Of a stretch of DNA of 64,000 nt, positions 7,247-7,609 are shown one piece after another; within the stretch, counting starts at the first letter, position 1; the number at the start of each line of letters is the position of its first letter. The DNA comes from Klebsiella phage RCIP0009, in sequence record OR532803.1; one strand, written 5' to 3'. The position numbers and the translations under genes are program-made. The notes below the pieces were generated by a model. That model was not told where the DNA came from and ran no database searches. It was given only the letters and a program-made list of their open reading frames with translations.

Positions 7247-7609
7247 ATGAAAGCATTTCAAATTTTAGAAGGTTTGCATACTGGTACGATCTATCTGGAA
7301 GAAGGTAACGACGTTCGGATCGTAGTATCAAAAACATTAACTATGGATTCTGTGATCGGCAAAGCTCGCGTTACTCCGTTTGCAAAGCGTGAGATCGAGA
7401 TCGAATATCAGCCAACTGTTAAGGTGGAAGGTGGACAACATTTAAACGTAAACGTGTTGCGCCGCGAAACTCTCCTGGATGCGGTTGAACATCCTGAAAA
7501 ATACCCACAGTTAACGATCCGTGTTTCTGGTTATGCAGTGCGTTTTAACTCACTGACCCCTGAACAGCAACGCGACGTTATCGCCCGAACCTTTACAGAG
7601 AGTCTATAA
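7247..7609 (+). CDS. grcA: autonomous glycyl radical cofactor (GrcA/YfiD-like; T4 Y06I-like)
   Basis: The C-terminal 60 aa, [59 protein letters not shown], are essentially identical to E. coli GrcA, including the glycyl-radical motif RVSGY. Confidence 0.8.

Follow-up and report, generated by a model that had tools for sequence, protein, structure and literature searches.

The locus considered here is part of a stretch of 64,000 nucleotides of Klebsiella phage RCIP0009 (record OR532803.1), which was analysed as a whole and is referred to as the window. It consists of a grcA-like gene, located between a gene for a DUF7338 protein and a gene of the Acb2 anti-CBASS family; the features of the locus, including the parts of the encoded protein, are listed below with their coordinates in the window.

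6633-6654, plus strand: hairpin and weak T-run immediately 5' of the three-gene unit; phage Miro has an annotated terminator at the corresponding place
6664-7236, plus strand: gene of the DUF7338 protein (190 aa), first gene of the unit; PF24027, E=3.8e-64; phrog_2143
7236-7240, plus strand: ribosome-binding site AAGGT, 7-8 nt 5' of the grcA ATG, read from the sequence; a ribosome-binding site is annotated at the Miro equivalent
7247-7609, plus strand: grcA-like gene, ortholog of T4 vs.6/Y06I; ATG start, 120 codons plus TAA
7247-7423, plus strand: N-terminal half, residues 1-59, a phage-lineage-specific form of the GrcA N-terminal region
7424-7606, plus strand: glycyl-radical domain at the C-terminus, residues 60-120; corresponds to PflB 699-759 and to GrcA 67-127
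7520-7540, plus strand: RVSGYAV, residues 92-98, read from the sequence
7520-7534, plus strand: RVSGY, residues 92-96, read from the sequence
7529-7531, plus strand: codon of the radical glycine G95, inside RVSGYAV
7609-7887, plus strand: Acb2/vs.4 homologue (anti-CBASS family); PF24729 Acb2_Tad1_hairpin, E=6.7e-17
7893-7928, plus strand: strong intrinsic-terminator-like hairpin with an 11-bp stem (hairpin 7893-7918), followed by a T-run; a terminator is annotated at the Miro equivalent
7943-7971: sigma70-like promoter after the terminator

The DUF7338, grcA and acb2 genes are predicted to form a compact three-gene unit that is ended by the terminator-like hairpin. The ribosome-binding site of grcA overlaps the stop codon of the DUF7338 gene; at the other end, the ATG of acb2 overlaps the stop codon of grcA (TAATG), so that the metabolic repair gene and the anti-defence gene appear to be translationally coupled. 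The downstream gene belongs to the same Pfam family as T4 vs.4, and the order of grcA followed by an Acb2 gene is therefore common to Slopekvirus, T4 and JS09, the order being vs.6-vs.5-vs.4 in the latter two phages. The DUF7338 gene begins with a GTG at position 6664, the start that is annotated in Miro being an ATG that corresponds to position 6670, and the N-terminus of its product looks hydrophobic. Synteny of this gene with T4 vs.8 has been considered and rejected: T4 vs.8 has no DUF7338 match, and only the adjacency of vs.6 and vs.4 is common to the two regions. The antisense open reading frames that are listed over grcA encode 34-38 aa and are without support.

Several other features of the window have been recorded in passing. 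An open reading frame for a homing endonuclease with HNH and AP2 domains is located at 9373-9891 (plus strand); blastn finds no counterpart of the segment 9377-9889 at the equivalent position of Miro, and the segment has therefore been inserted here, with the 30.3-like gene on one side and the genes upstream of DNA ligase on the other. At 46312-47574 (minus strand), a radical SAM protein of 420 aa with a SPASM/twitch domain is encoded, with weak family matches that are far below cut-offs and no match to glycyl-radical activase families. The frame at 32434-33507 (minus strand) combines a NUDIX and a cytidylyltransferase-like domain and is read as a putative enzyme of the NMN adenylyltransferase/Nudix type. 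In KM3, a close relative, a gene for nicotinamide phosphoribosyltransferase is present as well, and the two enzymes would make up a pair for NAD salvage. The minus strand also carries the genes of a PIN-PhoH fusion protein of 448 aa (40494-41840) and of a protein of 738 aa that has a von Willebrand A domain at its N-terminus (23870-26086). A tRNA-Met (CAT) at 5610-5686 (plus strand) is found by both ARAGORN and Rfam, the equivalent tRNA being placed on the opposite strand in the Miro record; the Rfam scan of the 64-kb stretch returned tRNA only.

The assignment of the protein to the GrcA family is based on profile searches, pairwise alignments and a predicted structure. Residues 60-101 match the Pfam family Gly_radical (PF01228, E=4.1e-18), and residues 18-120 match the NCBIfam profile of GrcA, TIGR04365, with 149.6 bits; this score is lower than the equivalog cut-off of 170 bits because the N-terminal half is diverged, and the protein is best treated as a phage subfamily of GrcA and not as an equivalog of the bacterial type. 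The profiles of the short variants GrcA2 and GrcA3 (NF008341 and NF038360) are matched around residues 59-120 with 109 and 93 bits, respectively, both below their cut-offs. The protein also matches the structure of E. coli GrcA/YfiD (PDB 6OWR, E=3e-40) and the C-terminus of E. coli PflB (E=1.4e-27), and the C-terminal part of its AlphaFold2 model superposes on 2PFL with an rmsd of 1.0 Å over 44 residues, as well as on 6OWR.

BLASTP aligns residues 19-120 with E. coli GrcA (70/103 positions identical, E=7e-50). Within the segment V60-L120, 59 of the 61 residues are the same as in E. coli GrcA, the differences being L77/E and E81/K, while all 61 are the same as in K. pneumoniae GrcA. Chance does not come near to accounting for such agreement. 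An alignment of 58 homologues has 43 invariant columns, and the columns of RVSGYAV are without variation. The first-pass annotation, which had described the last 60 residues, with RVSGY, as nearly identical to E. coli GrcA and the N-terminal half as diverged, is borne out on both counts; the radical glycine and its flanking residues are indeed conserved, and both of the relatives that it named are matched, T4 Y06I through vs.6 (E=8e-66). The last 61 residues are also similar to PflB (50/61 identical, 82%, including one stretch of 13 residues), but wherever GrcA and PflB differ, the phage protein has the residue of GrcA and never that of PflB. The possibility that the gene is a captured 3' end of pflB has been excluded on these grounds, and also because its N-terminal half shows homology to GrcA.

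The N-terminal part has about 11 of 41 aligned residues in common with E. coli GrcA (~27%), and residues 1-18 are outside the BLASTP alignment; positions that are homologous to GrcA nevertheless occur along the whole length of the protein, including Q5, I6, R24, K29, D34, R48 and E49. The C-terminal halves of the 58 aligned homologues are 85-100% identical across all groups, whereas N-terminal identity to the phage protein is 47-86% in the remaining phage proteins of vs.6 type, 39-46% in a second set of proteins of 130-142 aa, several of them encoded on contigs of about 150 kb that we suspect to be phages, and 20-31% in bacterial GrcA. It is the N-terminal half that carries the lineage signal.

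The N-terminal half is modelled by AlphaFold2 as a domain of five beta strands with a pLDDT of about 90, and the model of Klebsiella GrcA has the same five-strand domain and the same two-domain architecture, so that the predicted architecture would not be specific to phages; a phage-specific N-terminal fold has been excluded for the same reason. A Foldseek search with the beta domain returned KOW/SH3-like matches, none of which is significant. In published work on E. coli YfiD, residues 1-60 are described as disordered by NMR, and the N-terminal half is described as required for the binding of cleaved PFL (cPFL) and for the efficient installation of the radical. The predicted beta domain may represent a conditionally folded, partner-bound state, as opposed to the disorder that is observed by NMR, and by analogy with YfiD, the half of the phage protein that has diverged is the one implicated in the recognition of cleaved PFL.

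Among phage proteins, the closest characterised relative is T4 vs.6, with which 91 of 120 residues (76%) are identical without gaps. The T4 RefSeq record places vs.6 at 63557-63919, gives it 120 aa and names it "autonomous glycyl radical cofactor GrcA". The family phrog_1209, which PHROGs labels "unknown function", is matched from end to end (residues 1-120 against 1-121 of 121, E=4e-59). The Slopekvirus gene is the full-length ortholog of T4 vs.6/Y06I: besides these matches, the two genes have an Acb2/vs.4 homologue as a common neighbour, and the N-terminal half groups with the phage proteins and not with bacterial GrcA. We infer that Y06I is vs.6, because vs.6 is the only GrcA-like open reading frame that has been found in the T4 record. 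T4 Y06I, which had at first been brought in as the known phage precedent, is thus the relevant known case in a stronger sense, i.e. as an ortholog.

The gene is widespread. Megablast matches to grcA occur in 161 phage records, and its DNA is 98-99% identical in the Klebsiella phages KP15, KP27, Miro and about 100 others, reaching 99.2% in Miro and KP27; in KM3, it is 98.3% identical and collinear at the left end of the 64-kb window. The window belongs, with 99% nucleotide identity, to the KP15/KP27/Miro group of Slopekvirus. Miro (Straboviridae, Slopekvirus) annotates the frame as "glycyl radical cofactor; T4-like", and several further records as "autonomous glycyl radical cofactor". A tblastn search has found homologues in 1591 phage records, 1529 of them at 80% of the length or more; among the carriers are T-even phages (as vs.6) and T5-like phages, together with one Yersinia jumbo phage and one Vibrio phage. 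The open reading frame vs.6, with its Gly_radical domain, is kept in all six of six T4-like genomes compared by Nolan et al. 2006 (PMC1524935).

The RVSGYAV heptapeptide is a substrate of the PFL-activating enzyme (PFL-AE). According to Wagner et al. 2001, as related by Andorfer et al. 2021 (PMC8683613), E. coli YfiD and T4 Y06I are spare-part proteins of ~14 kDa that are activated by PFL-AE and restore PFL that has been cleaved by O2; in YfiD, residues 61-127 are described as a duplicate of the PFL C-terminus. The phage protein retains every residue of the catalytic and docking module of host GrcA, together with an N-terminal half that is diverged but under selection. By analogy with these proteins, we consider it likely, with good confidence, that the Slopekvirus protein works as T4 Y06I does, being activated by PflA at G95 and then complementing host PflB that has been damaged by oxygen. 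In such a sequence of events, the radical SAM activase PflA of the host would take a hydrogen from G95 within RVSGYAV; the C-terminal domain would then insert into a host pyruvate formate-lyase whose glycyl-radical tip had been cleaved by O2; and, while the cell is infected under microaerobic conditions or fluctuating oxygen, pyruvate would again be converted to acetyl-CoA and formate. The N-terminal half would be a diverged phage form of the YfiD region that promotes the binding and activation of cleaved PFL. The dependence on host PflA and PflB, as proposed from the letters of the DNA, is consistent with the invariant RVSGYAV and with the complete identity of the last 61 residues to host GrcA, and the gene may fairly be termed an auxiliary metabolic gene. 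It would illustrate well how such a phage gene can keep a fermentation enzyme of the host working when oxygen intrudes.

We know of no phage knockout phenotype for a grcA homologue. A plausible benefit to the phage would be a sustained supply of formate and of acetyl-CoA/ATP. Class III ribonucleotide reductase uses formate as its reductant, and PFL that is kept alive may therefore feed the synthesis of dNTPs by the phage. KM3 encodes nrdA/nrdB, nrdD and nrdG, and in the Yersinia jumbo phage fHe-Yen9-04, the grcA homologue (L090 695-1057) is located two genes downstream of nrdD, a placement that hints at a link between the repair of PFL and anaerobic dNTP synthesis.

A role of the opposite kind, in which the protein acts as a modulator or decoy, titrating PflA or binding intact or inactive PFL and thereby redirecting the fermentation of the host for the phage, is in our judgement unlikely. 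The activase segment is identical to that of the host, so that for PflA the phage protein is bound to be a competitor of PflB and host GrcA, and the phage-specific N-terminal half could alter the recognition of partners, both of which could be expected of a decoy; however, T4 Y06I is reported to restore, and not to inhibit, the activity of PFL (PMC8683613), and the parts of the protein that build the active site of PFL are completely conserved, which fits a catalytic role better than mere binding.

We regard as quite improbable that the protein serves another glycyl radical enzyme, i.e. either TdcE of the host (2-ketobutyrate formate-lyase) or NrdD of the phage. Some points speak for it: the homologue bears the name "2-ketobutyrate formate-lyase" in several phage records, the lineage encodes NrdD and NrdG, one jumbo phage has the homologue near nrdD, and spare parts for other glycyl radical enzymes have been speculated upon by Andorfer et al. 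(PMC8683613). Nevertheless, the domain is of the GrcA type at every position where GrcA and PflB differ, and a function in the repair of NrdD of the phage itself is excluded, the NrdD of KM3 ending with the radical motif RRTCGYLG and having no significant similarity to the grcA protein; TdcE is possible as an additional target. The reading that we prefer is still the repair of host PflB.

The near-identity to GrcA bears on the origin of the gene as well. The first-pass annotation had concluded from the extreme conservation that the gene was recently captured from an enterobacterial host, and a recent capture of grcA, or of its 3' half, would account for the 61/61 residues that are identical to K. 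pneumoniae GrcA; relatives, moreover, do possess host-derived 3' halves (96-97% nucleotide identity in T4 and JS09, 93-97% in Jiaodavirus). Our examination of this claim has made use of Nei-Gojobori pS and pN, per-codon difference tracks, GC3 and a simulation of codon choice, and of a sample of 84 bacterial grcA genes from E. coli, K. pneumoniae, K. quasipneumoniae and 80 species representatives; the 80-species set is without K. pneumoniae, the grcA gene of which was added separately.

At the DNA level, the claim does not hold for the hosts sampled. The 61 codons of the glycyl-radical domain are 79.8% identical to K. pneumoniae grcA, with a pS of 0.80 and a pN of 0, and 80.9% identical to E. 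coli grcA, with a pS of 0.70; the best identity among the 84 sampled genes is 83.1% and the median is 79.2%. With pS values of 0.70-0.82 against E. coli and Klebsiella grcA, the synonymous sites are saturated, and codons that are drawn independently from phage usage for the same peptide are expected to be 77.8±2.3% identical to K. pneumoniae grcA, a value from which the observed 79.8% does not depart (p=0.23). The longest in-register exact run that is shared with any sampled bacterial grcA is 35 nt, as against 131 nt in Jiaodavirus and 91 nt in T4, and the GC3 of the segment is 0.41, close to the phage baseline of 0.39 and not to the 0.67 of the K. pneumoniae gene. No Slopekvirus was matched when K. 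pneumoniae grcA was used as a megablast query against 50,697 phage records. The identity of the 61 residues does not point to any donor, since the same state is common, occurring in 14 of the 84 bacterial loci, including Salmonella and Klebsiella; the two differences of E. coli are the less common state.

Selection on the protein is strong: in comparisons with Olmo and Xman, dN/dS amounts to 0.07-0.10 for the N-terminal half and to 0.03-0.06 for the C-terminal one, and against Miro, the gene has three synonymous substitutions and zero amino-acid changes. The saturated synonymous sites, the phage-like GC3 and the low dN/dS mean that the conservation reflects constraint and not youth. A recent capture is in our view highly improbable, and the Slopekvirus gene is an old phage gene that is under strong purifying selection and fully adapted to phage codon usage. 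The case calls for caution: a phage protein can be 100% identical to one of the host without recent transfer being implied, since the synonymous sites of this gene are fully randomised. That the frame is a non-functional relic or mis-called, for which the PHROGs label of phrog_1209 could be adduced, has a negligible probability, given that it is intact in 1529 phage records at 80% coverage or more, that the dN/dS of 0.03-0.10 contradicts it, and that a ribosome-binding site and an operon context are present.

The opposite picture is obtained in related genera of the Tevenvirinae. In Tequatrovirus, Mosigvirus and Jiaodavirus, the 3' half of the gene (the last 183 nt) has a DNA identity of 93-98% to the grcA gene of the phage's own host, with 96-97% to E. 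coli grcA in Tequatrovirus/Mosigvirus: T4 vs.6 (L002 6558-6920) is 96.7% identical to E. coli grcA with a dS of 0.09, the JS09 homologue (L092 701-1063) is 95.6% identical to it with a dS of 0.17, and among the Jiaodavirus homologues (L086 701-1063; L099/L100 721-1083), one copy matches K. pneumoniae grcA at 93.4%, the exact run of 131 nt lying within the match. In T4, JS09 and Jiaodavirus, a sharp breakpoint coincides with the codon that opens the glycyl-radical domain, the 5' half being AT-rich and phage-like. Among the 50,697 phage records, the E. coli grcA segment is found in 622 at 95-99% identity, and the K. pneumoniae segment in 106 at 95-99% and in 28 at 90-95%; the three K. pneumoniae-like records that were inspected are all Jiaodavirus. 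Between T4 and JS09, dS is 0.12 in the 3' half and 0.50 in the 5' half, and the 3' half is therefore younger than the split of the lineages. Together, the comparisons indicate at least two independent and recent host-to-phage replacements of the glycyl-radical module. The inference of recent acquisition from the host, which fails for Slopekvirus, is thus correct for these genera. Our literature search on the evolution of phage grcA, or on host-derived DNA in vs.6, returned no relevant paper.

We tentatively put forward, as a reading that we hold to be possible but rather doubtful, that exact identity of the docking module to host GrcA is itself selected, and that phages have reached it by two routes. 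In the first, exemplified by Slopekvirus, the copy of which has no host-like tract, an anciently acquired and recoded copy may have been held in place by extreme purifying selection. In the second, the module of 183 nt may be overwritten repeatedly by homologous exchange with the grcA gene of the current host, as in Tequatrovirus and Mosigvirus with E. coli and in Jiaodavirus with K. pneumoniae; the replacements themselves are well supported, and they may be adaptive, as opposed to a neutral by-product of sequence homology. If this is true, vs.6 is a recurrent hotspot of gene conversion from the host to lytic phages, and carries a built-in record of host association. The contrast with T4-like relatives could serve in studies of the homologous exchange of lytic phages with the chromosomes of their hosts, and the host-derived 3' halves of the sister genera are the only part of the present findings that possibly merits a separate follow-up.

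Compared with known systems, the phage protein shares its Gly-radical domain with both short variants, GrcA2 and GrcA3, but the profiles of these have 78-80 positions and no counterpart of the N-terminal half, which the phage protein keeps. With residues 696-759 of PflB, it has in common the C-terminal domain, in both sequence (50/61) and modelled structure (1.0 Å over 44 residues), but it is a stand-alone protein of 14 kDa, without the catalytic barrel. Bacterial GrcA (YfiD of E. coli, structure 6OWR, and its Klebsiella counterpart) is homologous over the whole length and has the same predicted two-domain architecture; the phage protein differs from it in being 7 residues shorter and in its N-terminal half (20-31% identity), and the phage copy belongs to a lytic phage, where it is predicted to be co-transcribed with an anti-CBASS gene, whereas the bacterial locus is ung-grcA.

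The closest likeness is to T4 vs.6: both proteins have 120 aa, belong to phrog_1209 and share the N-terminal signature MKA(Y/F)QILEG.H.GTIY, and in both phages an Acb2/vs.4 gene is located downstream, with the short vs.5 in between in T4. The two differ in that their N-terminal halves share only 34 of 59 residues; in location, the T4 gene being in the tk-vs-denV region and the Slopekvirus gene between gene 31 and the ligase gene 30; and in the 3' half, which is 96.7% E. coli DNA in T4 and fully recoded in Slopekvirus. The Slopekvirus gene is, in this respect, already known, as a member of a family that is reported to have been characterised biochemically in 2001, with T4 Y06I, is conserved in T4-like phages and is annotated in its own phage group.
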